From: a virus
Lineage: Duplodnaviria > Heunggongvirae > Uroviricota > Caudoviricetes
DNA length: 64,000 nt
Reading direction: 5' to 3' (one strand)
Virus record (IMG/VR): IMGVR_UViG_2698536476_000008
The notes under the pieces were generated by a model, which saw only the letters and a list, made by a program, of their open reading frames with translations, searched no databases and was not told where the DNA came from. How positions within the stretch are numbered: position 1 is the first letter of the stretch; each line of letters opens with the position of its first letter. A program made the position numbers and the translations under genes. Shown here one piece after another: positions 1,883 to 64,000 of the stretch.

Positions 1883-2722
1883 TCACGCATCGCTATCCAA
1901 CAGCAAATCATCTGCGCGGGTGCGATCAAACGTAGGCGTTGCTTTCACAATAGTGCCGCCCGGCGTTGCAGTGATCGGGGCGTTAATCGACGTAACTTCA
2001 GTAAGCGAAGTTGTATCCGAAGTTTCAAACCAGCAGAATGCTTTTTCGGTATCAGAAATCTCATTCAAAGTGATCATGTCGGCCTGTTCATTTACAACAA
2101 CCGACAAATAGAGCGTAAGCCCATCAAACACTATATGCAGTGGCAGTAGAGGCTTTACGAACTGATTAAACTTTCTGAGAATTTCTTCTGTAATTGCGGA
2201 CTGATCTATCGTTCCTGTAATACCCATTGTCCGGGCCAGGTCGTTTATGGGAATACTGATCATTCCTCTGGAAGTCAGAAACATCTCGCCGAATGTGCCG
2301 CCGGTGGTTTCCAGTGTGCTTTCTGGAATCAGGACCGTGCCATAGGGATGACGTTCAAAGTCCACCGGAGCATATATGGGATCCCATAAAACCGATATAC
2401 CGTTAAATTCGCGATAAATTGTCTGGTTTATAGGGCGTTCAGTACCCTTAAAATGGATCTCATCAAACCGCTGTTGTAACAACATCGGAACGGAAGATGA
2501 ATTCGACGTTCTGATAGTAAAAAACTGGCCAAGTTCATTTGTCCTAGTCTCCAGATCCTCCTTGCTCATGGAGAAAATAGACTTCCGGTTGGTAATTCGC
2601 TCCAACCATGGGTCAACAAAGGTGTCCATCATTGACTGAACCAAATCAGCCAATGATTTATAAAGTAATGACTTTTGCTTAGCTGATGTAAGCCGGTTAT
2701 TAAACCAGGAACGCTGCATCAC
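1883..2722 (-). CDS. Baseplate/tail protein (279 aa)
   Basis: ORF track; 4-bp overlap with upstream gene; position in wedge-J-I-fibre type module. Confidence 0.45.
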   Translation of the reverse strand: MMQRSWFNNRLTSAKQKSLLYKSLADLVQSMMDTFVDPWLERITNRKSIFSMSKEDLETRTNELGQFFTIRTSNSSSVPMLLQQRFDEIHFKGTERPINQTIYREFNGISVLWDPIYAPVDFERHPYGTVLIPESTLETTGGTFGEMFLTSRGMISIPINDLARTMGITGTIDQSAITEEILRKFNQFVKPLLPLHIVFDGLTLYLSVVVNEQADMITLNEISDTEKAFCWFETSDTTSLTEVTSINAPITATPGGTIVKATPTFDRTRADDLLLDSDA

Positions 2723-4152
2723 TCCTCCTCATACGAAATATTAAAGGTGGAGTTTTCTGTATCCAGATAAACGAAATCGTAAAAGCCGTTGGACTCATTC
2801 CACTCGACAAATTCCAGATAAAAGTCGCGGAAATAACCCAGCGTTTCGATAAATGCCCAAACGTCTTTTTTCTTGATTAGGATGTACTTGCCGACACGGT
2901 TCGGATCAAAGAAAGTTGAGTCACGCCCAAATTTTGTTTCCAGTGCCGACTTCAGCTCATCAGTCACGTTCTCAATGGTCAGGCTTGCCGATATCCGCCC
3001 AGTGATGGTGATCTTAAAGGGGAGTTTTCTGACCTCTTTATACGAGAATTTCTTGTTCAACTCATTCGGCACCTTCTTAAAGGCAGCCAGGATCATTTCT
3101 TCAAGCTCTGACTGGCTTTTGTTTGGATGCCATCCTGAAATAAATATCTTATTGATATTCCGAACATTATAAGCACCATCTAATTTCTCTTGCTGGCCTT
3201 CGCCCCATGCCTTTACCCAGGACAGTCCCGGGATGTTACGCACCAGAAAATACGTATAGTCCCCGCCCCATACGACCTGATCATCATAGGCAAGGTAATA
3301 TTGTGCACGATTACGTGTGATCTCCGTTGTTTCGGCATCGGTACCTGCGGTTATGGGTGTCGTTGTCTTAACTGAAATCAAATTAGCTAAATTAGCCGCA
3401 GAATCGACAGGAGTCAGGTTTTGGCCAGCAACCAGGGTTATATCTCCGTTGGTGCACCATACCTTAAGTGTAATGGTCGAGCCTTCTGGCGGTATTTGCC
3501 CAATTAGCCCATCACCGAATCGAACCCCCAACTGCTCGGATGGCTTATAAAACTCAACGTAGACCTGGCTTTTACTACCGGCTAACCGGAACATAGTGCT
3601 GGAAGACCACTGCGTGGTCTTACCATCGGTCGTCACGAATACTTCCAGCTTATAGCAGACAGCAGTGAGAGCCTTTGATAACACGACTTCCAGAAATTCT
3701 TTGGCTGCCGTAACGGTATATGTCACCTCCTGGATTTCCAACTGTGCCACTTCTACCGTACCGGTGCCGTCAACCAACCTGCATACATCCATAGTCATGT
3801 AAGGGTACTGGTCGTCAGATATTAAAGGCATATTTTTGGGGATTACCGCTGGGGCATCTTCACTTGTGGCGGTGATCTCAATCATCCCCGATGACGGTGT
3901 TGGCTTGGTACCAACGTAACTATTCGTTTCTGCCGCTGCCAGGATAGAGGAACGCCGCGTCGCGGTCGATATAAAGCCTTCAGCCAGCGCCGCATCGGCA
4001 TACTGAAAGCACCTGTAGACAATCTGGGTAATAAACAATGTCAGCATCGAGACAAATTGAGAGCCGACAAACTTCGACCAGAATGAATCTTTCTCGACAA
4101 GCTCTTCAAACTCTGCACGAATACTGTCTTTAGTCGGTGTTGTTTTACTCAT
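2719..4152 (-). CDS. Baseplate J-like protein (477 aa)
   Basis: ORF track; size and position between wedge-like and fibre genes; overlaps neighbours by 4 bp. Confidence 0.45.
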   Translation of the reverse strand: MSKTTPTKDSIRAEFEELVEKDSFWSKFVGSQFVSMLTLFITQIVYRCFQYADAALAEGFISTATRRSSILAAAETNSYVGTKPTPSSGMIEITATSEDAPAVIPKNMPLISDDQYPYMTMDVCRLVDGTGTVEVAQLEIQEVTYTVTAAKEFLEVVLSKALTAVCYKLEVFVTTDGKTTQWSSSTMFRLAGSKSQVYVEFYKPSEQLGVRFGDGLIGQIPPEGSTITLKVWCTNGDITLVAGQNLTPVDSAANLANLISVKTTTPITAGTDAETTEITRNRAQYYLAYDDQVVWGGDYTYFLVRNIPGLSWVKAWGEGQQEKLDGAYNVRNINKIFISGWHPNKSQSELEEMILAAFKKVPNELNKKFSYKEVRKLPFKITITGRISASLTIENVTDELKSALETKFGRDSTFFDPNRVGKYILIKKKDVWAFIETLGYFRDFYLEFVEWNESNGFYDFVYLDTENSTFNISYEEE

Positions 4153-11307: not shown

Positions 11308-11404
11308 TATAACCTCACCTGCCTTATAACTCATTTAGGGTACATATTTTCGCCTTTAAAAAAAAGAGGTTATTAGATCCAATTGTGTATTTATTAAGCA
11401 TGCA

Positions 11405-11420
11405 ATGCTCTAATAAATTT
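11405..11420 (+). promoter_or_regulatory. C1-operator-like site (ATGCTCTAATAAATTT)
   Basis: Match to recalled P1 C1 operator consensus ATTGCTCTAATAAATTT; lies upstream of icd-ant locus. Confidence 0.55.
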
Positions 11421-11589
11421 GTATTTTTAAGTCACGAATGCTATCTTTTCACATCATATTGACCTTTTAATCGTTCAGGCTTATAGTTCCGCCGTCGTAG
11501 CAAATTCTGCGACCGGGTTTAGCAGCCTGAATACTTACGCGGACAACCGCAGATTTCCGATATTGCGGTATTTTTGTGTCCGTAAACCA

Positions 11590-11670
11590 CGTTACGCCCG
11601 AATTATGGTGGGGCGTGATGGGGAGGCTTCGGCCTGCTGGTTTCGTAAGTGCCAGTCTGCTAACCCCGTC
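11590..11670 (+). ncRNA. Candidate c4-like immunity RNA (coordinates approximate)
   Basis: Block TATGGTGGGGCGTGATGGGGAGGCTTCGGCCTGCTGG conserved with 62083-62125, with compensatory changes around a TTCG-loop hairpin; sits between operator and icd as in P1 immI. Confidence 0.35.
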
Positions 11671-11732
11671 ACGTCCTGCCACCTGTTTAGCAGCGGGTCG
11701 CAGGTTGTTTATCAACTTACGAGGCCGTAACT

Positions 11733-11954
11733 ATGGTTAATGCCAATCCTTGCGCACGCCAAGAATTCATCTGGCGGTTCTATTCCTGTAAAAAACACCA
11801 CTATCACTTCGTTATCGCAGCAACAGAAGACGAAGCACGCTCTCAATTGCCTGATGGCCCCTGCATTTTTACTGCCCGTTTTTCAACTAACTCGCGCAAT
11901 TCACTTAGTTACTGGAGCCTCCCCTTCTCTGCCGACGTTCAGGGGGGTTTATGA
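11733..11954 (+). CDS. icd: Icd-like small protein (73 aa), overlaps ant start
   Basis: 73-aa ORF ending in ATGA overlap with ant; paralog at 62222-62443. Confidence 0.55.
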   Translation: MVNANPCARQEFIWRFYSCKKHHYHFVIAATEDEARSQLPDGPCIFTARFSTNSRNSLSYWSLPFSADVQGGL

Positions 11955-12994
11955 AAAAACCTCTCGTCACCCGTAATGACATAGCCGAAGCGATCGCCCT
12001 GCATACTGCCTGTATGCCGACACGGGAGATCCCCGGCGCAATTGCCAACTATTTCATGATAACCAGACGTTTTTATACCCGAACAGATAAGGCTGTGATC
12101 AACAAGCTACTGATAGCCGAGATCAGGGATTATTTGATTGAACAAGGACGTCTACGTTACGCAACAGTGGCAGCAGAAATGAGAAAGGAGGCACATAGAA
12201 TGACCGGTAATAATTTGAATGTTGAAAAAACAGCACCTGTTACGTCAGCTACGCCAGCACCAGCCGTGAATATCATCCCCAACACCGGAGACACAATCGA
12301 CAGCCTGACACTGTTAAAGATGGTCAATGAAGCGCGTAAGTTATGTGGGGAACCAGAGGTTCGGAACAACAAATTCATCGAAAAAATACTCGACGAATTA
12401 GAAGGTGAGGACGGTTACACAAAAAGTGCAACCGTGCCGCCAGGTGGCGGTACGCCTATGGTTGTCATAACCATGACCTACAAACAAGCCCTGCGAGTCG
12501 CCGCACGCGAATCAAAAGCCGTCCGCCGTTCGCTGATCGACAAACTGGAAGAATTGCAGCAGGCAAACTCCCCTGCCCCATCGATCCCCCAAACATTACC
12601 AGAAGCTCTACGCCTGGCTGCCGAGTTGGCAGAACAGAAAATGCAGCTGGAACAACAGCTGGTGGCCGCAGCCCCTAAAGTCGATTTTGCCGACCGGGTA
12701 TCAGTGGCCAATGGAATCCTGATCGGGAACTTTGCAAAGGTCGTTGGACTTAAGCAAAACGCCCTTTTCTCATGGTTGCGCCAGAACGGCATTCTCATGG
12801 CTTTTGGTGCGCGCAAAAACGTACCGCGCCAACAGTACATCAACGCCGGGTATTTCACGGTGAAAGAAGTGGTGCTGGATGATGAAAATGGCTACCAGAT
12901 ACGGCTGACGCCCCAATTAACGGGTAAAGGCCAGCAGTGGTTAACTCGCAAGCTACTTGATGCTGGTTTGTTAAAACCAGTAGCAATAGGTTAA
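11951..12994 (+). CDS. ant: Antirepressor Ant (347 aa) with C-terminal KilAC-type domain
   Basis: C-terminal PKVDFADRVSVANGILIGNFAKVVGLKQNALF...GYFTVKEVVLDDENGYQIRLTPQLTGKGQQWLTRKLLDAG. Confidence 0.75.
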   Translation: MKKPLVTRNDIAEAIALHTACMPTREIPGAIANYFMITRRFYTRTDKAVINKLLIAEIRDYLIEQGRLRYATVAAEMRKEAHRMTGNNLNVEKTAPVTSATPAPAVNIIPNTGDTIDSLTLLKMVNEARKLCGEPEVRNNKFIEKILDELEGEDGYTKSATVPPGGGTPMVVITMTYKQALRVAARESKAVRRSLIDKLEELQQANSPAPSIPQTLPEALRLAAELAEQKMQLEQQLVAAAPKVDFADRVSVANGILIGNFAKVVGLKQNALFSWLRQNGILMAFGARKNVPRQQYINAGYFTVKEVVLDDENGYQIRLTPQLTGKGQQWLTRKLLDAGLLKPVAIG

Positions 12995-13988: not shown

Positions 13989-14834
13989 ATGCTGGCTAAA
14001 GTCACTTTCCTGAGCTGTATAACGATGAGCGATTTTACTTTTTCTGGCTATGAATTGGCCTGCTTTGTAACACACTCCGGTCTATCCCGTAGCGCCGGGC
14101 ATATCCTGTCGCAATGTGCAAATCTAGCGGCAACAACCAGTGAATACTTCATTCACAAGCCTCACCGCCTGATCGCGGCAGAAACTGGTTATAGCCAATC
14201 AACCGTCGTTCGTGCATTCCGTGAAGCTGTAAACAAAGGAATTCTGTCTGTAGAGATTGTTATCGGCGATCACCGTGAACGTCGCGCTAACCTGTACCGG
14301 TTTACACCATCCTTTTTGGCCTTCGCACAACAAGCCAAAAATGCGCTGATTGAAAGCAAATTAAAGATCTCTTCAGCGGCAACCAAGGTTAAAGCTGTTC
14401 TCGCTAAGACATTGGCTTTATTTAATTTTTTATCCACACCCCCATGTCAAAATGATACCCCCTCCCCCTGTCAGGATGACGTGGCAATAAAGAATAAGAA
14501 GTCACAAGTTAAAAAAACAAAAAGATCAGTTTCCGGCGGTGCCGGAACGACCAGACTCAAAAAATTGACTTCATGGATCGCTGAGGCAAAAACAAAGGCT
14601 GACAATCTGCGGTTATCCAAAAAACGCGCTCAAAAACATGAGTTCAAGCAGAAAGTAGAGGCGGCAGCGCGGAAATATGCTTACCTGAAGAACAAGCGTT
14701 CTCCTGATATTGGCGGGGTATCAAACTTCGATAATCTGCCGCATTGCATGACGGTAAACGAAGCTCTTAATGCGGTTTTAGCCAAAAATAAAGATAACGA
14801 ACAATGGGGTATACCGGCAGGATTCAGAGGGTGA
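13989..14834 (+). CDS. repL: RepL lytic replication protein (281 aa)
   Basis: HTH ETGYSQSTVVRAFREAVNKGIL; size and position after kilA as in P1. Confidence 0.7.
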   Translation: MLAKVTFLSCITMSDFTFSGYELACFVTHSGLSRSAGHILSQCANLAATTSEYFIHKPHRLIAAETGYSQSTVVRAFREAVNKGILSVEIVIGDHRERRANLYRFTPSFLAFAQQAKNALIESKLKISSAATKVKAVLAKTLALFNFLSTPPCQNDTPSPCQDDVAIKNKKSQVKKTKRSVSGGAGTTRLKKLTSWIAEAKTKADNLRLSKKRAQKHEFKQKVEAAARKYAYLKNKRSPDIGGVSNFDNLPHCMTVNEALNAVLAKNKDNEQWGIPAGFRG

Positions 14835-15130: not shown

Positions 15131-15253
15131 TACAATCGTTGCGGGTGCTTGAGGCTATCTGCTTCAGGCATTACCCGAAAAGCAGATAGAAGAAAGCCCC
15201 AGATAACATCACGCGTCCTGCAAGACGCTTAACATTAATCTGAGGCCATATCT

Positions 15254-15460
15254 ATGCTTAGCATACGTAGATTAGCCTCTTACCGACCAAAAGGTCAAGG
15301 AGAAGTAGGCTATGAAGCAGCAAAAAGCGATGTTAATCGCTCTGATCGTCATCTGTTTAACCGTCATTGTGACGGCACTGGTAACGAGGAAAGACCTCTG
15401 CGAGGTACGAATCCGAACCGGCCAGACGGAGGTCACTGTCTTCACAGCCTACGAATCTGA
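15254..15460 (+). CDS. mok-like overlapping reading frame upstream of and overlapping hok
   Basis: 68-aa ORF in a different frame overlapping the hok-like gene, as in hok/mok/sok loci. Confidence 0.35.
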   Translation: MLSIRRLASYRPKGQGEVGYEAAKSDVNRSDRHLFNRHCDGTGNEERPLRGTNPNRPDGGHCLHSLRI

Positions 15461-15467
15461 AAGGTAA
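15312..15467 (+). CDS. hok: Hok/Gef-family type I toxin (51 aa)
   Basis: Verified codon by codon: MKQQKAMLIALIVICLTVIVTALVTRKDLCEVRIRTGQTEVTVFTAYESER; AGGAG 7 nt upstream; Hok family signature TRK.LCE.R....EV..F.AYES. Confidence 0.85.
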   Translation: MKQQKAMLIALIVICLTVIVTALVTRKDLCEVRIRTGQTEVTVFTAYESER

Positions 15468-31988: not shown

Positions 31989-32064
31989 GATGGTGTAGCT
32001 CAGCGGTTAGAGCGGTTGACTGTTAATCAACGGGTCGATGGTTCAAATCCATCCACCATCGCCA
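31989..32064 (+). tRNA. tRNA-Asn (anticodon GTT)
   Basis: Cloverleaf by eye: acceptor GATGGTG/CACCATC, anticodon loop CTGTTAA, T-arm GGTTCAAATCC, encoded CCA. Confidence 0.9.
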
Positions 32065-32066
32065 AT

Positions 32067-32142
32067 GCCGGTTTAGCTCAGTTGGTAGAGCGCCTGCCTT
32101 GTAAGCAGGATGTCAGCGGTTCGATTCCGTTAATCGGCACCA
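32067..32142 (+). tRNA. tRNA-Thr (anticodon TGT)
   Basis: Acceptor GCCGGTT/AATCGGC, anticodon loop CTTGTAA, T-arm GGTTCGATTCC, encoded CCA. Confidence 0.9.
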
Positions 32143-34142: not shown

Positions 34143-34218
34143 GGCCCTTTAGCTCAGTGGTTAGAGCTGGCGACTCATAATCGCACGGTCACCGGTTCAA
34201 GTCCGGTAGGGGCCACCA
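34143..34218 (+). tRNA. tRNA-Ile2 type (anticodon CAT, lysidine-type by resemblance to E. coli ileX)
   Basis: GGCCCTTTAGCTCAGTGGTTAGAGC...CTCATAA...GGTTCAAGTCC...GGGGCCACCA. Confidence 0.85.
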
Positions 34219-59205: not shown

Positions 59206-60399
59206 GTGACCTGGGACGATCACAAGAAGAATTTTGCTCGCCTGGCGCGAGATGGTGGTTACACCATCGCACAGTATGCCGCCGAGTTTAATCTTAACCC
59301 TAATACCGCACGTCGTTATCTCCGTGCCTTCAAAGAAGACACCAGGACAGCGGACAGCCGCAAGCCAAATAAGCCAGTCAGGAAGCCACTAAAAAGCATG
59401 ATCATTGATCACTCTAATGATCAACATGCAGGTGATCACATTGCGGCTGAAACAGCGGAAAAACAAAGAGTTAATGCCGTTGTCAGTGCCGCAGTCGAGA
59501 ATGCGAAGCGCCAAAATAAGCGCATAAATGATCGTTCAGATGATCATGACGTGATCACCCGCGCCCACCGGACCTTACGTGATCGCCTGGAACGCGACAC
59601 CCTGGATGATGATGGTGAACGCTTTGAATTCGAAGCTGGCGATTACCTGATAGATAACGTTGAAGCGCGGAAGGCCGCGCGCGCTATGTTGCGTCGGTCC
59701 GGGGCCGATGTTCTGGAAACCACTCTTCTGGAAAAGTCTCTTTCTCATCTCCTTATGCTGGAGAACGCCAGGGATACGTGTATTCGCCTGGTGCAGGAAA
59801 TGCGCGATCAGCAAAAAGACGATGATGAAGGTACTCCGCCTGAATACCGTATCGCGAGCATGCTAAACAGCTGTTCCGCGCAGATAAGCAGTCTGATCAA
59901 CACCATTTACAGCATCCGGAATAACTATCGAAAAGAAAGCCGGGAGGCGGAAAAGCACGCTTTGTCTATGGGGCAAGCTGGCATTGTTAAGCTGGCATAT
60001 GAACGAAAGCGTGAAAATAACTGGTCAGTGCTGGAAGCAGCTGAATTCATCGAGGCGCATGGTGGGAAAGTTCCGCCCCTGATGCTGGAGCAAATCAAAG
60101 CCGATCTGCGTGCTCCTAAGACCAATACCGATGATGAGGAAAGGCAAACAGCCGTCGGTGGCCCTTCTCTTGACGATCTGGACAAAGTTGCGCGAGAACG
60201 GGCCGCCAACCGCCGCGCCGATGCCGCATTGTGGATTGAGCAGCGTAGGGAAGAAATCGCCGATATCGTTGATACAGGCGGTTATGGAGATGTTGATACT
60301 GAAGGTGTATCAAACGACCCATGGCTGGAACAAGACCTGGACGAAGACGAGGAGGAAGACGAAGAAGTTACCCGCAAGCTATACGGGGATGATGATTAA
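59206..60399 (+). CDS. pacA: Terminase small subunit PacA (397 aa), GTG start
   Basis: AAAGGAAG upstream of GTG; contains pac hexamer clusters; acidic C-terminus; size as recalled for P1 PacA. Confidence 0.85.
59399..59585. other. pac: pac packaging site: two clusters of TGATCA/G hexamers
   Basis: TGATCA at 59399, 59406, 59418, 59433; TGATCG/TGATCA at 59529, 59541, 59552, 59580. Confidence 0.8.
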
Positions 60400-61883
60400 T
60401 GGCCAGAAGTTGCGTAACGGATCCTCGTTGGCGCGAGCTGGTGGCGCTATATCGTTATGACTGGATTGCTGCCGCTGATGTTTTGTTCGGCAAAACACCT
60501 ACCTGGCAGCAGGATCTGATTATTGAGTCTGTGCAGGAACAGGGTAGCAAGACATCTGTTTCGTCTGGTCACGGTACCGGGAAATCAGACATGACTTCTA
60601 TCATGATCATGTTGTTCATAATCATGTATCCCGGTGCCCGCGCCATTATCGTTGCGAACAAAATTCAGCAGGTAATGACCGGTATATTCAAGTACATCAA
60701 GATAAACTGGGCTACTGCCACCAGCCGTTTTCCATGGCTTGCTGATTATTTTGTTCTGACAGAAACCGCTTTCTATGAGGTTACTGGTAAAGGTGTATGG
60801 ACTGTAGTACCGAAGGGCTTTCGTCTGGGAAGTGAAGAAGCTCTCGCCGGTGAACACGCAGATCATCTTCTGTATATTATCGATGAAGCCTCCGGTGTCA
60901 GTGATAGAGCTTTCGGTATCATCACCGGTGCTCTTACCGGACAGGATAACCGCATCTTATTACTGTCACAGCCTACACGCCCAAGCGGCTATTTCTACGA
61001 TACTCACCATAAACTGGCCAAGCGTCCTGGTAACCCAGATGGCGTTTATACGGCGATCACGCTTAACAGTGAGGAATCACCGCTGGTAACGCCAGAATTT
61101 ATCAAAATGAAGCTGGCGGAGTACGGCGGGCGTGATAACCCTATGTACATGATTAAGGTGCGCGGCCTATTCCCTAAATCACAGGACGGCTTCCTTCTTG
61201 GACGTGATGAGGTTGAACGTGCAACGCGGCGGAAAGTTAAGATTGCCAAAGGATGGGGCTGGCTTGCATGTGTGGACGTTGCTGGTGGTACGGGACGGGA
61301 TAAGTCAGTTATCAATATCATGATGGTGTCCGGCCAGCGAAATAAACGCCGTGTAATCAACTATCGAATGCTGGAATACACAGACGTTACAGAAACGCAG
61401 CTTGCCGCCAAAATTTTCGCAGAATGTAATCCTGAGCGATTCCCCAATATCACCATAGCGATAGATGGCGATGGCCTGGGTAAAGCAACAGCGGATCTGA
61501 TGTACGAGTATTATGGTATTACCGTACAGCGTATACGCTGGGGTAAAAAGATGCATAGCCGTGAAGATAAGAGCCTGTACTTTGATAAACGTGCTTATGC
61601 CAACGTTCAAGCCGCAGAGGCCGTAAAATCTGGTCGTATGAGACTGGATAAGGGTAATGAAACTATTGAGGAAGCGTCGAAAATCCCTGTAGGGATTAAC
61701 TCCGCAGGTCAATGGAAGGTGATGAGTAAGGAGGATATGAAGAAAAAACTCAACCTGCACTCACCAGACCATTGGGATACATATTGTTTCGCTATGCTGG
61801 CGGATTATGTTCCCCAGGATGAAGTGCTTAGCGTCGAAGACGAAGCGCAGGTTGATGAAGCTCTGGCATGGCTTAATGAATGA
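60399..61883 (+). CDS. pacB: Terminase large subunit PacB (494 aa)
   Basis: Walker [10 protein letters not shown]; size as recalled for P1 PacB. Confidence 0.85.
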
Positions 61884-61886
61884 ATA

Positions 61887-61903
61887 TTTGCTCTAATAAA
61901 TTG
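61887..61903 (+). promoter_or_regulatory. C1-operator-like site upstream of second icd-ant locus
   Basis: TTTGCTCTAATAAATTG. Confidence 0.6.
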
Positions 61904-62069
61904 TGTTTTTTAGCTACCGATGTTACATTGAACCTGACCTCTTGCGCCTTGAGGCATTTTCGGTTTATGCTTATCAGGCACCTCATTAAAACGGGTGCCG
62001 GGATTGGCCTCCCGCTTAAGTCTAAGGCGATACAGACGCCGCTCGCGTCTTTTTTTGTATCGGCGTACA

Positions 62070-62150
62070 CGCACACCTCTACAATGGTGGGCTGTATGGG
62101 GCTACCTTCGGGTAGGCTGGTTACCTTGGACGCCAGTAAGGCCAACTCCG
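62070..62150 (+). ncRNA. Candidate c4-like immunity RNA, second copy (coordinates approximate)
   Basis: AATGGTGGGCTGTATGGGGCTACCTTCGGGTAGGCTGG conserved with 11604-11645. Confidence 0.35.
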
Positions 62151-62221
62151 TACAGTCCACCGCCAGCAAGATTGGTCTCTTCTGCGGTGGTTACATACCA
62201 ACGTCTAAGGAGGCTGCCAAT

Positions 62222-62443
62222 ATGGCTACTATCCCTACCCCAACTCATCCTGAATTTATCTGGCGCTTTTACTCCTGCCAAAAACGTCACTATCACTTCG
62301 TTATTGCACCAACAGAAGATGAGGCCCGCTCTCAGCTGCCTGACGCCCCATGTATTTTCTCTGCCCGTTTTTCCACTGATTCACGCAATTCTCTCAGTTA
62401 CTGGTACCTCCCTGTTAACGCTTCTGTTCAGGAGGGGCTATGA
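62222..62443 (+). CDS. icd: Icd-like small protein (73 aa), second copy
   Basis: AAGGAGG before ATG 62222; MATIPTPTHPEFIWRFYSCQKRHYHFVIAPTEDEARSQLPD... Confidence 0.55.
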   Translation: MATIPTPTHPEFIWRFYSCQKRHYHFVIAPTEDEARSQLPDAPCIFSARFSTDSRNSLSYWYLPVNASVQEGL

Positions 62444-63558
62444 GAACGTCATTAGTCACCCGTGAAGAGATGATCGAGGCAATTGAACAGCACACTGCCT
62501 GTATCAGCACCAGGGATATTCCCAGTGTTATAGCCAACTACTTCATGATCACTAAACAACTTTACCGGAGAAAGGACAAGAACGCGGTTCACCGTATCCT
62601 GCTGTCTGATATTCGCGAATACCTGCTCGAACAGGGTCATCTGAATTACGCAACCGTCGCAGCCGAAGCACGCAAGGAGGCACACAGAATGAAAGCAACT
62701 AACGTTAAATCAGAAAAAATTCATGCACCTTCAGTTCAGGAATCGGAGCTGGTGGTTGTTCAGAATCAGTCTGATGAAATTCCCGTTCTGGAATGGCAGG
62801 GAGTGCGTGTAGTGACAACCGAGACTCTTGCTAGAGGGTATGGGACAGAAACAATCCGTATTCGCCAAAATCATCATGAGAACAAAGTACGCTTTGTTGA
62901 AGGGAAGCACTTTTTCAAAGTTGAAGGAGAATCATTGCGCGAGTTGAAGCACAGAGTAGCTTTAAACTACTCTGTAAAAATTGCTCGCAATGTTCGCTCA
63001 CTCACCCTCTGGACAGAACGCGGCGCAGCCCGCCACGCTAAAATGCTCGAAACCGATCAGGCATGGGCATTCTTTGAAAAACTGGAAGACAGCTACTTCC
63101 GACAAAAAGAACAGCAACCGATCGCAATCCCCCAGACGCTTCCTGAAGCCCTACGCCTGGCTGCCGAACTGGCTGAACAAAAGCAACTTCTGGAACAGAA
63201 AGCCCACCAGCTAAATCAGCAGCTGGTGGCCGCCGCTCCTAAAGTCGATTTTGCCGACCGGGTATCAGTAGCTAAAGGGATCCTGATTGGGAATTTTGCA
63301 AAGGTTGTTGGACTTAAGCAAAACGCGCTGTTTGTCTGGTTACGGGAGAACGGCATCCTGATAGCGTCCGGTGGACGTAAAAATGTGCCGTTCCAGCAGT
63401 ACATCAACGCGGGGTATTTCACGGTGAAAGAAGTGGTGCTGGATGATGAAGATGGCTACCAGATACGGTTGACGCCTCAATTAACGGGTAAAGGCCAGCA
63501 GTGGTTGACGCGTAAACTGCTCGATGCTGGCTTGTTAAAACCGGTGGCAGCTGAATAA
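62440..63558 (+). CDS. ant: Antirepressor paralog (372 aa) with extra middle domain
   Basis: N- and C-terminal thirds paralogous to Ant at 11951-12994. Confidence 0.75.
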   Translation: MRTSLVTREEMIEAIEQHTACISTRDIPSVIANYFMITKQLYRRKDKNAVHRILLSDIREYLLEQGHLNYATVAAEARKEAHRMKATNVKSEKIHAPSVQESELVVVQNQSDEIPVLEWQGVRVVTTETLARGYGTETIRIRQNHHENKVRFVEGKHFFKVEGESLRELKHRVALNYSVKIARNVRSLTLWTERGAARHAKMLETDQAWAFFEKLEDSYFRQKEQQPIAIPQTLPEALRLAAELAEQKQLLEQKAHQLNQQLVAAAPKVDFADRVSVAKGILIGNFAKVVGLKQNALFVWLRENGILIASGGRKNVPFQQYINAGYFTVKEVVLDDEDGYQIRLTPQLTGKGQQWLTRKLLDAGLLKPVAAE

Positions 63559-63590
63559 TGGAAGAATGCCCGGTTGATGCCGGGCATAAT

Positions 63591-64000
63591 TTATTGCGCG
63601 CTTTCGGGGTTGTCGTTTACTGGCTGCCCCTTCTTGGTTTTACGACTGCGCGTAACTGATGCGGCTGACTTAACCTTTTTCTCTTCGCGAGTGATGGCAA
63701 TTTGTTTTTTTACATTTTCAATATCTGCCAGGCGATATATTTTTGCTTGCGGCCAGCGGTCGCAGATGATCGGTTCTATGGAGTCATAAAGGCTAAATTT
63801 TGCTTTTTCGAATTCACCGTTGATGATAATTCCATCACGGAGAGTTTCATCGCAGATAAACACGCCACACAGTGGCACATGGTAACTAACTGATTTACCA
63901 TCATTGTAGTTAGGGCTACTGGAAATGTAGTGGACGCGCAGCATTGTTTCGCTAAAGCCGTGTACGCGCATACGGAATTTTTCATCCTCCGGGTACTGCC
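63591..64000 (-). CDS. Hypothetical protein, probably truncated at window end
   Basis: Reading frame stays open upstream of the first Met to the window edge; basic C-terminus. Confidence 0.35.
   Translation of the reverse strand, partial: QYPEDEKFRMRVHGFSETMLRVHYISSSPNYNDGKSVSYHVPLCGVFICDETLRDGIIINGEFEKAKFSLYDSIEPIICDRWPQAKIYRLADIENVKKQIAITREEKKVKSAASVTRSRKTKKGQPVNDNPESAQ

Follow-up and report, generated by a model that had tools for sequence, protein, structure and literature searches.

The c4–icd–ant mechanism of the immI operon is established for phages P1 and P7, and its components are annotated in the records of both genomes. Here, modules of this type are described in a P1-like (IncY-type) phage-plasmid, part of which is represented by the IMG/VR virus record IMGVR_UViG_2698536476_000008; the analyzed stretch of 64,000 nucleotides is referred to below as the window. 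The window contains two operator–c4 RNA–icd–ant modules in the same orientation, about 50.5 kb apart (11404-12994 and 61887-63558, hereafter locus 1 and locus 2). The interpretation that we favor, and consider quite probable, is that the two loci are paralogous antirepressor modules, each of them locked by a separate antisense RNA, with locus 2 being an addition at the junction between pacB and c1.

Locus 1 aligns with the P1 immI region at 94.8% identity over 1,751 nt (up to 99.2% in other P1-type phages), and all features annotated in P1, namely Op51, P51a, P51b, a1, b1, c4, a2, b2, icd, ant1 and ant2, map to it. Its position is that of the P1 operon as well, with the sim region (simC) upstream and kilA and repL downstream. 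By sequence, locus 1 is thus the canonical P1 immI operon. The promoter TTGACC-17-TATAGT (11459-11487) was also picked up by a promoter scan. The c4 RNA of this locus folds at -45.7 kcal/mol, with the recognition sequence b' exposed in the loop of hairpin 2 and the second recognition sequence, a', single-stranded; together, these two elements are referred to as the key. The key of locus 1 (b' CGUAAGU, a' CUGCUAA) differs from that of P1 in both elements (CACUAAC, CUGUCAA) and from that of P7 (CACAAUC, CUGCUAA) only in b'. In the encoded Ant protein, the Pfam KilAC/ANT domain spans residues 234-336, and the middle domain matches no Pfam family. The locus 1 region is 100% identical to the Escherichia coli plasmid NZ_CP063155.1, which lacks locus 2.

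In P1, 25 bp separate pacB from the convergent c1 gene; locus 2 is a 1.7-kb block that takes the place of this spacer. It reads as a chimera of an IsrK/C4-type leader and c4 RNA, a P1-type icd gene together with P1-type N- and C-terminal parts of Ant, and an ORF6N middle domain. The leader is matched by the Rfam isrK model and not by the P1-type c4-a1b1 model (the Rfam gathering scores are 50 bits for isrK and 45 bits for C4). The c4-type RNA folds at -41.8 kcal/mol into the architecture seen in locus 1, that is, a long stem, two hairpins and a single-stranded a'. The icd gene is P1-type from about codon 10 onward, and the residues of Icd that are predicted with AlphaFold 3 to contact FtsZ, R15, Y24, E32, R49, S57 and W61 (PMC11897509), are all present in its translation. 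The icd and ant genes overlap by ATGA at 62440-62443, and an in-frame ATG at 62689, preceded by AAGGAGG, mirrors the P1 ant2 start; both the overlap and the Shine-Dalgarno/ATG of the Ant2-like product are conserved. Matches to the C1 operator consensus ATTGCTCTAATAAATTT number 11 in the window against 0.32 expected by chance. The operator of locus 2 is unchanged in the allelic modules L034, L045 and that of phage RCS47, and overlaps a candidate -35 element as does P1 Op51. Neither of the putative promoters of locus 2 passed the consensus promoter scan, so these promoters are weak or uncertain. The locus 2 region is 100% identical to the Escherichia marmotae plasmid NZ_CP099352.1, which lacks locus 1. 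The c4 RNA itself is unannotated in most records of such modules; in many of them, a RefSeq 'ash family protein' coding sequence is laid over the c4 region (e.g., L011 2878-2997), which may reflect the RNA gene being mistaken for a protein-coding one.

The recognition specificity of the two c4 RNAs was compared by matching only their unpaired segments, the b' loop and the a' single strand, with the targets. These segments pair with the a1, b1, a2 and b2 sites of the same locus over 7-11 bp in locus 1 and over 7-9 bp in locus 2, and in both loci b2 overlaps the icd Shine-Dalgarno sequence. Across the loci, c4–target pairing includes either no run of at least 6 bp or only runs of 6-7 bp with 1-4 G-U pairs that lie off the a/b sites. 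The keys share no usable complementarity with the targets of the other locus, and therefore each c4 should silence its own ant only. Whole-RNA duplex energies (RNAduplex) did not separate cognate from non-cognate pairs because this method ignores the fold of c4 itself.

The same correspondence holds beyond the window. Keys were surveyed in 79 IMG/VR loci encoding relatives of the locus 2 Ant and in reference phages, using Rfam scans and anchored pattern searches; in the resulting 85 modules, every key is accompanied by matching targets, and in each allele scored, the targets shift together with the key. In family I (P1-type leader), there are 5-6 variants of b' (CACTAAC, CATGTAC, CGTAAGT, CATTCGT, CACAATC, CACAAGT) and two of a' (CTGTCAA or CTGCTAA). 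In family II (IsrK-type leader), b' within P1-like elements is CCTTGGAC, CCTTTTGC or CCTTTGAC and a' is AGGCCAA, GTCTCAA or GTTCCAA; the family II modules reside at pacB–c1 in 49 of the 58 scorable cases. The a'/b' combinations number at least 11 in the P1-type family and at least five in the IsrK-type family. Modules of the same element very rarely share a combination; in particular, b' differs in all five elements with two family I modules. A contig with two tandem family II modules about 1.5 kb apart downstream of pacB (L071 and L109, IMGVR_UViG_2698536372_000019) also has two family I modules; in its tandem pair, the first ant is truncated and the c4 key is identical in both copies.

In an alignment of seven family II keys, including those of the Stx2 phage F039 and of SfV, 94.6% of the a':a2 and b':b2 positions are paired and nine of the 16 pairs are compensatory; for a1:a' and b1:b', the pairing is 100%, with compensatory changes in nine of 15 pairs. 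When the partners are slid by 1-3 columns, pairing drops to 20-54%. None of 500 shuffles reached the observed covariation score, a count that is not a probability with so few sequences (seven), all of them related; more weight is given to the slid controls and to how many pairs are compensatory. Between locus 2 alleles, dN/dS is 0.05-0.19 for icd and 0.14-0.45 for ant, the mark of purifying selection on both genes. Covariation and low dN/dS together indicate that the module is maintained by selection that acts on the pairing of the RNA as well as on the protein sequences. Locus 2 could instead be a nonfunctional relic that was left by recombination with a lambdoid phage and is decaying, as might be suspected from its absence in P1, P7 and about two thirds of the P1-like plasmids, from its interruption by IS1 in phi456 and partial deletion in pFG92-1, and from the weak promoter signals. 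This is quite unlikely considering that the open reading frames are intact and evolve at dN/dS of 0.05-0.45, that the operator, Shine-Dalgarno sequence, ATGA coupling and internal start are conserved, and that the compensatory changes linking the c4 key to its four targets in seven alleles require selection on pairing.

The two loci are old paralogs, neither a recent duplication nor an assembly artifact. The original prediction, that an operator-like site, a c4-like block, a 73-aa icd-like gene and ant recur at two places in the window, is borne out, with all four elements seen in each locus, and self-BLAST of the window recovers the similarity: 12584-12985 matches 63127-63549 at 81.4% identity over 424 columns including a 21-nt indel, and 11763-12203 matches 62252-62692 at 70.5% over 441 nt. 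Both also have a weaker match in the 3' part of kilA. The identity of 85-90% that had been estimated by eye for the C-terminal part of ant is reached only at the bottom of this range and only in the final ~340 nt (85.7% over 342 nt, ungapped), the longer match falling short of it; the ungapped identity is 73.4% for icd and 65.1% for the first 252 nt of ant. The longest exact runs shared by the two loci are 39, 32 and 29 bp. At the protein level, the Icd sequences are 83% identical over 63 residues, and the Ant proteins (347 and 372 aa) are 55% identical overall. The loci are separated by a synonymous divergence (dS) of 0.69 where they are most alike and of 1.6-2.8 in the other segments, so there is no sign of recent gene conversion. 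Duplication or collapse of a single locus during assembly, which had been raised as grounds for dismissing the observation, is ruled out because the copies differ in 15-35% of the bases, belong to different leader families, and recur jointly in independently sequenced phages and plasmids.

The two-locus arrangement is common among P1 relatives and is already present in databases and in the literature. A module at pacB–c1 is found in RCS47 (where it is annotated 'ant'), vB_EcoM-673R5 and JL22, and all three carry locus 1 as well. A query consisting of pacB, the module and c1 is covered to at least 80% in 268 of the 816 matching PLSDB plasmids and in 248 of 5,426 complete E. coli genomes (~4.6%). 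Family I modules are also present in at least 11 of the 14 family II-bearing IMG/VR contigs of at least 85 kb, and some of these have three modules. Two relatives carry damaged versions of locus 2. In phi456 (L005 2748-3863), an IS1 has eliminated the module up to the last ~110 codons of ant; in pFG92-1-109kb (L010 2762-3016), a deletion joins a DUF968 gene to icd, and lpa, pacA, pacB and c4 are gone. Additional insertion sites exist. In L087 and L088, a family I module (1950-3610 of each) is inserted exactly between the positions that correspond to 36860 and 36918 of the window, where the site is empty and contains only a terminator-like hairpin, AAAAGCCCGAACGCCGGGCTTTTC; L020 and L022 represent a further site, the flanks of which are not in the window.

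The original prediction also held that recombination between the copies would excise most of the window, including the replicon. The geometry is indeed such that a replicon-bearing circle would split off. The broader claim, that the two loci act mainly as direct repeats through which the ~50-kb segment with the replicons is deleted or resolved, appears very unlikely, the repeats being ancient paralogs (dS of at least 0.69) and not copies poised for recombination. The loci do have the same orientation, and their exact runs exceed the minimum usually cited for RecA-dependent exchange, ~25 bp. Yet the shared segment is only 81-86% identical and shows no recent conversion, and the two-locus arrangement is stable in hundreds of complete plasmids. 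Furthermore, c1 lies outside the segment bounded by the two loci, and accordingly one of the crossover circles would keep repL, repA-parAB, kilA and ant but lose c1, and the other would have c1 but no replicon; for these reasons, neither would be expected to be stably maintained. No deletion product was identified for the pair in the window. Deletion through the copies is, then, geometrically possible but unlikely and self-defeating, and the repeat is neither an assembly problem nor a likely source of instability.

Exchange between sites has nevertheless happened in evolution, as the mosaic modules in relatives demonstrate. Both ORF6N and P1-type middle domains of Ant, and both c4 families, occur at either site, and the cassette breakpoints fall around codon 10 of icd, where Ant2 starts and where the KilAC domain begins; over evolutionary time, the modules seem to have exchanged parts by cassette shuffling. 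A possible case of crossover comes from two contigs of one draft genome, L051 (IMGVR_UViG_2548876964_000015) and L090 (IMGVR_UViG_2548876964_000006), which have the reciprocal hybrid junctions expected from recombination between the third site and pacB–c1. One junction consists of the left flank of the third site, a family I c4, an ORF6N Ant and c1; the other, of pacB, a family II c4, a P1-type Ant and the right flank of the third site. The contig _000006 is 25.8 kb long, close to the ~26.7 kb expected for an excised circle. However, these modules share ~450 bp at 94-98% identity and the draft was built from short reads, so that misassembly across the near-identical repeat and a real two-circle recombination product are equally possible.

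The features of the two loci suggest the following scheme for the two antirepressor modules. C1 would keep the operator-linked promoter off, and each module would produce one transcript that comprises the leader (a1, b1), c4, a2, the b2/icd ribosome-binding site, icd and ant. If this works as in P1 and P7, any transcription would yield c4, and the processed RNA would pair through the loop b' and the adjacent a' with a2 and b2 and block icd translation; RNase P is the candidate processing enzyme, and polarity on ant may be Rho-dependent. Ant would then not be made because ant is coupled to icd translation by the ATGA overlap and is subject to transcriptional polarity. The upstream a1 and b1 sites may titrate c4, and in locus 2, the leader that holds them is probably freed as a short RNA of the IsrK type. 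In Gifsy-1, and only there, this short RNA has been shown to turn on translation of the downstream open reading frame and the antirepressor in trans (PMC4825925). Failure of either lock, for example, when the element enters a cell in which the resident prophage does not have the key in question, would let Ant inactivate C1 and Icd stop cell division; Icd acts by binding FtsZ. As a prophage, the element would be immune to relatives with either key, and as a phage, it would break the immunity of lysogens without either key. These predictions of silencing and escape follow from the orthogonality of the keys.

The target of the locus 2 Ant deserves separate consideration. This protein might be aimed at a repressor other than C1, for instance, that of a co-resident lambdoid prophage, and so serve cross-talk among unrelated prophages instead of P1-type anti-immunity. 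It has an ORF6N middle domain, which P1 Ant does not, and the cassette of leader and c4 shares ~79% identity with the one that precedes Rha/ORF6N-type antirepressors in Stx2a phages and resembles those of SfV and Gifsy-1. On the other hand, the module contains a P1 C1 operator, the two Ant proteins share the P1-type N-terminal 83 residues (60% identity) and the C-terminal KilAC domain (88%), the middle domain switches freely between ORF6N and P1-type at both P1 sites, and the Stx and SfV c4 keys examined are unlike the key of locus 2. Altogether, this possibility appears unlikely, and C1 is the more plausible target. Several observations still weigh against the scheme of two keyed modules directed at C1. 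Given the ORF6N domain, the target could indeed be another repressor; the candidate constitutive promoter of locus 2, TTGAGG-17-TATCAG, is poor, so c4 may not be produced from this locus in a lysogen; locus 2 is dispensable because some relatives, such as phi456 and pFG92-1, have lost or truncated it; and distinct keys are not an absolute rule because the tandem family II modules of one contig share a key. These points notwithstanding, locus 2 is best regarded as a real, well-formed second immunity module that is probably functional.

More tentatively, and perhaps with somewhat less than even confidence, it can be proposed that P1-like phage-plasmids carry one to three antirepressor modules distributed over at least four sites, that the two elements of each c4 form a combinatorial address, and that the key set of an element decides mutual induction or exclusion, the second locus being both a weapon and a shield. 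P1-like phage-plasmids are common in both E. coli and Salmonella, and many of them, increasingly so, carry resistance genes. Their coexistence, exclusion and induction are probably set by the specificity of c4 and ant, in the way known from the classical heteroimmunity of P1 and P7. If the module is a complete, selected, orthogonal lock-and-key unit, immunity relations could be read from sequence, and the a'/b' keys could be used for plasmid typing. The explicit demonstration of orthogonal, co-varying, combinatorial c4 keys may be new: no account that treats the module as a full c4 unit with a specificity of its own was found in the literature searched, which did not include the D6 genome paper (Gilcrease and Casjens 2018).

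The coordinates of all features are collected in Table 1.

Table 1. Components of the two immunity modules, their flanking genes and the replication and partition genes between them (positions in the window).
Feature	Position	Strand	Evidence and remarks
Locus 1 C1 operator (Op51 equivalent)	11404-11420	+	AATGCTCTAATAAATTT, 1 mismatch to consensus; aligns to P1 Op51
Locus 1 promoters, P51a (C1-controlled) and P51b equivalents	11418-11487	+	Mapped from P1 annotation
Locus 1 leader with c4 targets	11481-11540	+	Rfam c4-a1b1 at 11481-11533, 56.2 bits
Locus 1 a1	11519-11525	+	TTAGCAG; mapped from P1; complementary to c4 single strand
Locus 1 b1	11533-11540	+	ACTTACGC; mapped from P1; complementary to c4 loop
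Locus 1 c4 antisense RNA, 77 nt	11607-11683	+	Rfam C4 at 11601-11686, 70.8 bits; P1 c4 equivalent
Locus 1 a2 (11687-11693) and b2 (11715-11725, over icd Shine-Dalgarno)	11687-11725	+	7-bp and 10-11-bp complementarity, own c4 only
Locus 1 icd, 73 aa, cell-division inhibitor	11733-11954	+	ORF; under the 94.8% P1 match annotated icd
Locus 1 ant1, 347 aa; nested ant2 start at 12200	11951-12994	+	ORF; ATGA overlap with icd; P1 ant1/ant2 annotation
Shared ant 3' segment (KilAC domain), copy A	12584-12985	+	Self-BLAST against copy B
repL, lytic replicon, between the loci	13989-14834		
parB, parA and repA, between the loci	ParB 21129-22130, ParA 22147-23343, RepA 24614-25498	-	ORFs; Pfam ParB, ParA HTH/AAA, Rep3
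pacB (terminase large subunit), left flank of locus 2	60399-61883	+	ORF; annotated pacB in RCS47 and P1
Locus 2 C1 operator	61887-61903	+	TTTGCTCTAATAAATTG, 2 mismatches (15/17 match consensus)
Locus 2 putative promoters	61901-61977	+	TTGTGT-17-TACATT over operator; TTGAGG-17-TATCAG aligned with P51b
Locus 2 IsrK-type leader	61978-62055	+	Rfam isrK, 60.8 bits
Locus 2 a1	62004-62010	+	TTGGCCT; complementary to own c4
Locus 2 b1	62020-62027	+	GTCTAAGG; complementary to own c4
Locus 2 intrinsic terminator	62034-62050 plus T7 run	+	Terminator scan
Locus 2 c4-type antisense RNA	62086-62164	+	Rfam C4 at 62080-62167, 75.9 bits; key b' CCUUGGAC(G) / a' AGGCCAA
Locus 2 a2	62172-62178	+	TTGGTCT; complementary to own c4 only
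Locus 2 b2	62202-62210	+	CGTCTAAGG; over Shine-Dalgarno AAGGAGG; complementary to own c4 only
Locus 2 icd-like gene, 73 aa	62222-62443	+	83% amino-acid identity to locus 1 Icd
Locus 2 ant, 372 aa	62440-63558	+	Pfam ORF6N residues 116-202, KilAC/ANT 260-361
Shared ant 3' segment, copy B	63127-63549	+	Self-BLAST against copy A
Terminator-like hairpin between convergent ant (locus 2) and c1	63566-63587	+	In the inserted module; not at the P1 junction
c1 repressor gene, 3' part, runs past the window; right flank of locus 2	63594-64000	-	tblastn, 100% to C1 residues 149-283

Several other features of the window are of note. Just downstream of repL (15143-15467), there is a hok/sok-type toxin-antitoxin system, in which the Rfam sok match (15143-15317) scores 112 bits and the 51-aa Hok-like open reading frame at 15312-15467 is annotated hokD in related plasmids. 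Three tRNA genes (31989-32061, 32067-32139 and 34143-34215; Rfam tRNA, 65-75 bits) are present as in the P1 tRNA region. At the start of the window, self-BLAST detects three dispersed copies of a segment of ~170-240 bp (171-407, 471-708 and 603-770) that are 81-85% identical; Tandem Repeats Finder reported nothing in this region (171-770), and the copies are probably an internal repeat of coding sequence. A 59-bp direct repeat (48916-48974 and 50124-50182, 83% identical, 1.2 kb apart) lies within the variable region of 47.7-56 kb where the window differs from the plasmid NZ_CP063155.1.

Among the described systems, the 'ant' insertion at pacB–c1 of RCS47 (FO818745), pTZ20_1P and other P1-like plasmids is the same module at the same site. 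The identity with locus 2 is 93% for RCS47, 98.8% for vB_EcoM-673R5 and 89% for JL22; the RCS47 module has a key that differs from that of locus 2 (b' CCUUUGAC, a' GUCUCAA). Venturini et al. 2019 (PMC6906374) mention the pacB–c1 module only as two short hypothetical open reading frames and an antirepressor gene. D6-like plasmid prophages (phage D6; pYU39_89, PMC6799933) likewise have two antisense-RNA/icd/antirepressor regions. The second module of D6 has a family II key, but it resides in another backbone and adjoins ref instead of the pacB–c1 junction. The CI RNA of satellite phage P4 (seqA, seqB, seqC) is similar in that a processed RNA derived from the leader of the operon that it controls pairs with two sequences, located upstream and downstream of itself; this RNA acts by transcription termination on the P4 replication genes, and neither icd nor ant is involved. 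The likeness of the P4 CI RNA to the IsrK/C4-type systems has been drawn previously (PMC4825925).

The leader and c4 of locus 2 find their counterparts in the isrK-STnc1160-orf45-anrP locus of Salmonella Gifsy-1, the Stx2a phages and SfV, with which locus 2 shares the IsrK-type leader with a terminator, the C4-type RNA, the start of a short open reading frame and an antirepressor. The identity to Stx2a phages over the leader and c4 is ~79% across 276 nt, and in one Stx2a phage, the region is annotated 'isrK' plus 'C4'. The open reading frame downstream of the cassette in F039 and SfV shares the MATIP/MATVP start with the icd gene of locus 2, which places the cassette boundary a few codons into the first open reading frame. 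In Stx2 phage F039 (L264 1500-1745) and in SfV (L265 1200-1450), the cassette has keys of its own, CCUUGAUUG / GUCCUAA and CCUUGAUCA / ACGCCAA, respectively; no key shared with locus 2, which would allow cross-regulation, was found in these two phages. Unlike in Gifsy-1, the Stx2a phages and SfV, the cassette of locus 2 is fused to a P1-type icd and Ant scaffold, is placed under a P1 C1 operator and has other recognition sequences. With immI of P1 and P7, finally, locus 2 shares the order of the parts, the c4 fold, the two-site recognition, the ATGA coupling of icd and ant and the nested Ant2 start; it differs from immI in the pacB–c1 site, the IsrK-type leader with a terminator, the unrelated key and the ORF6N middle domain of Ant.

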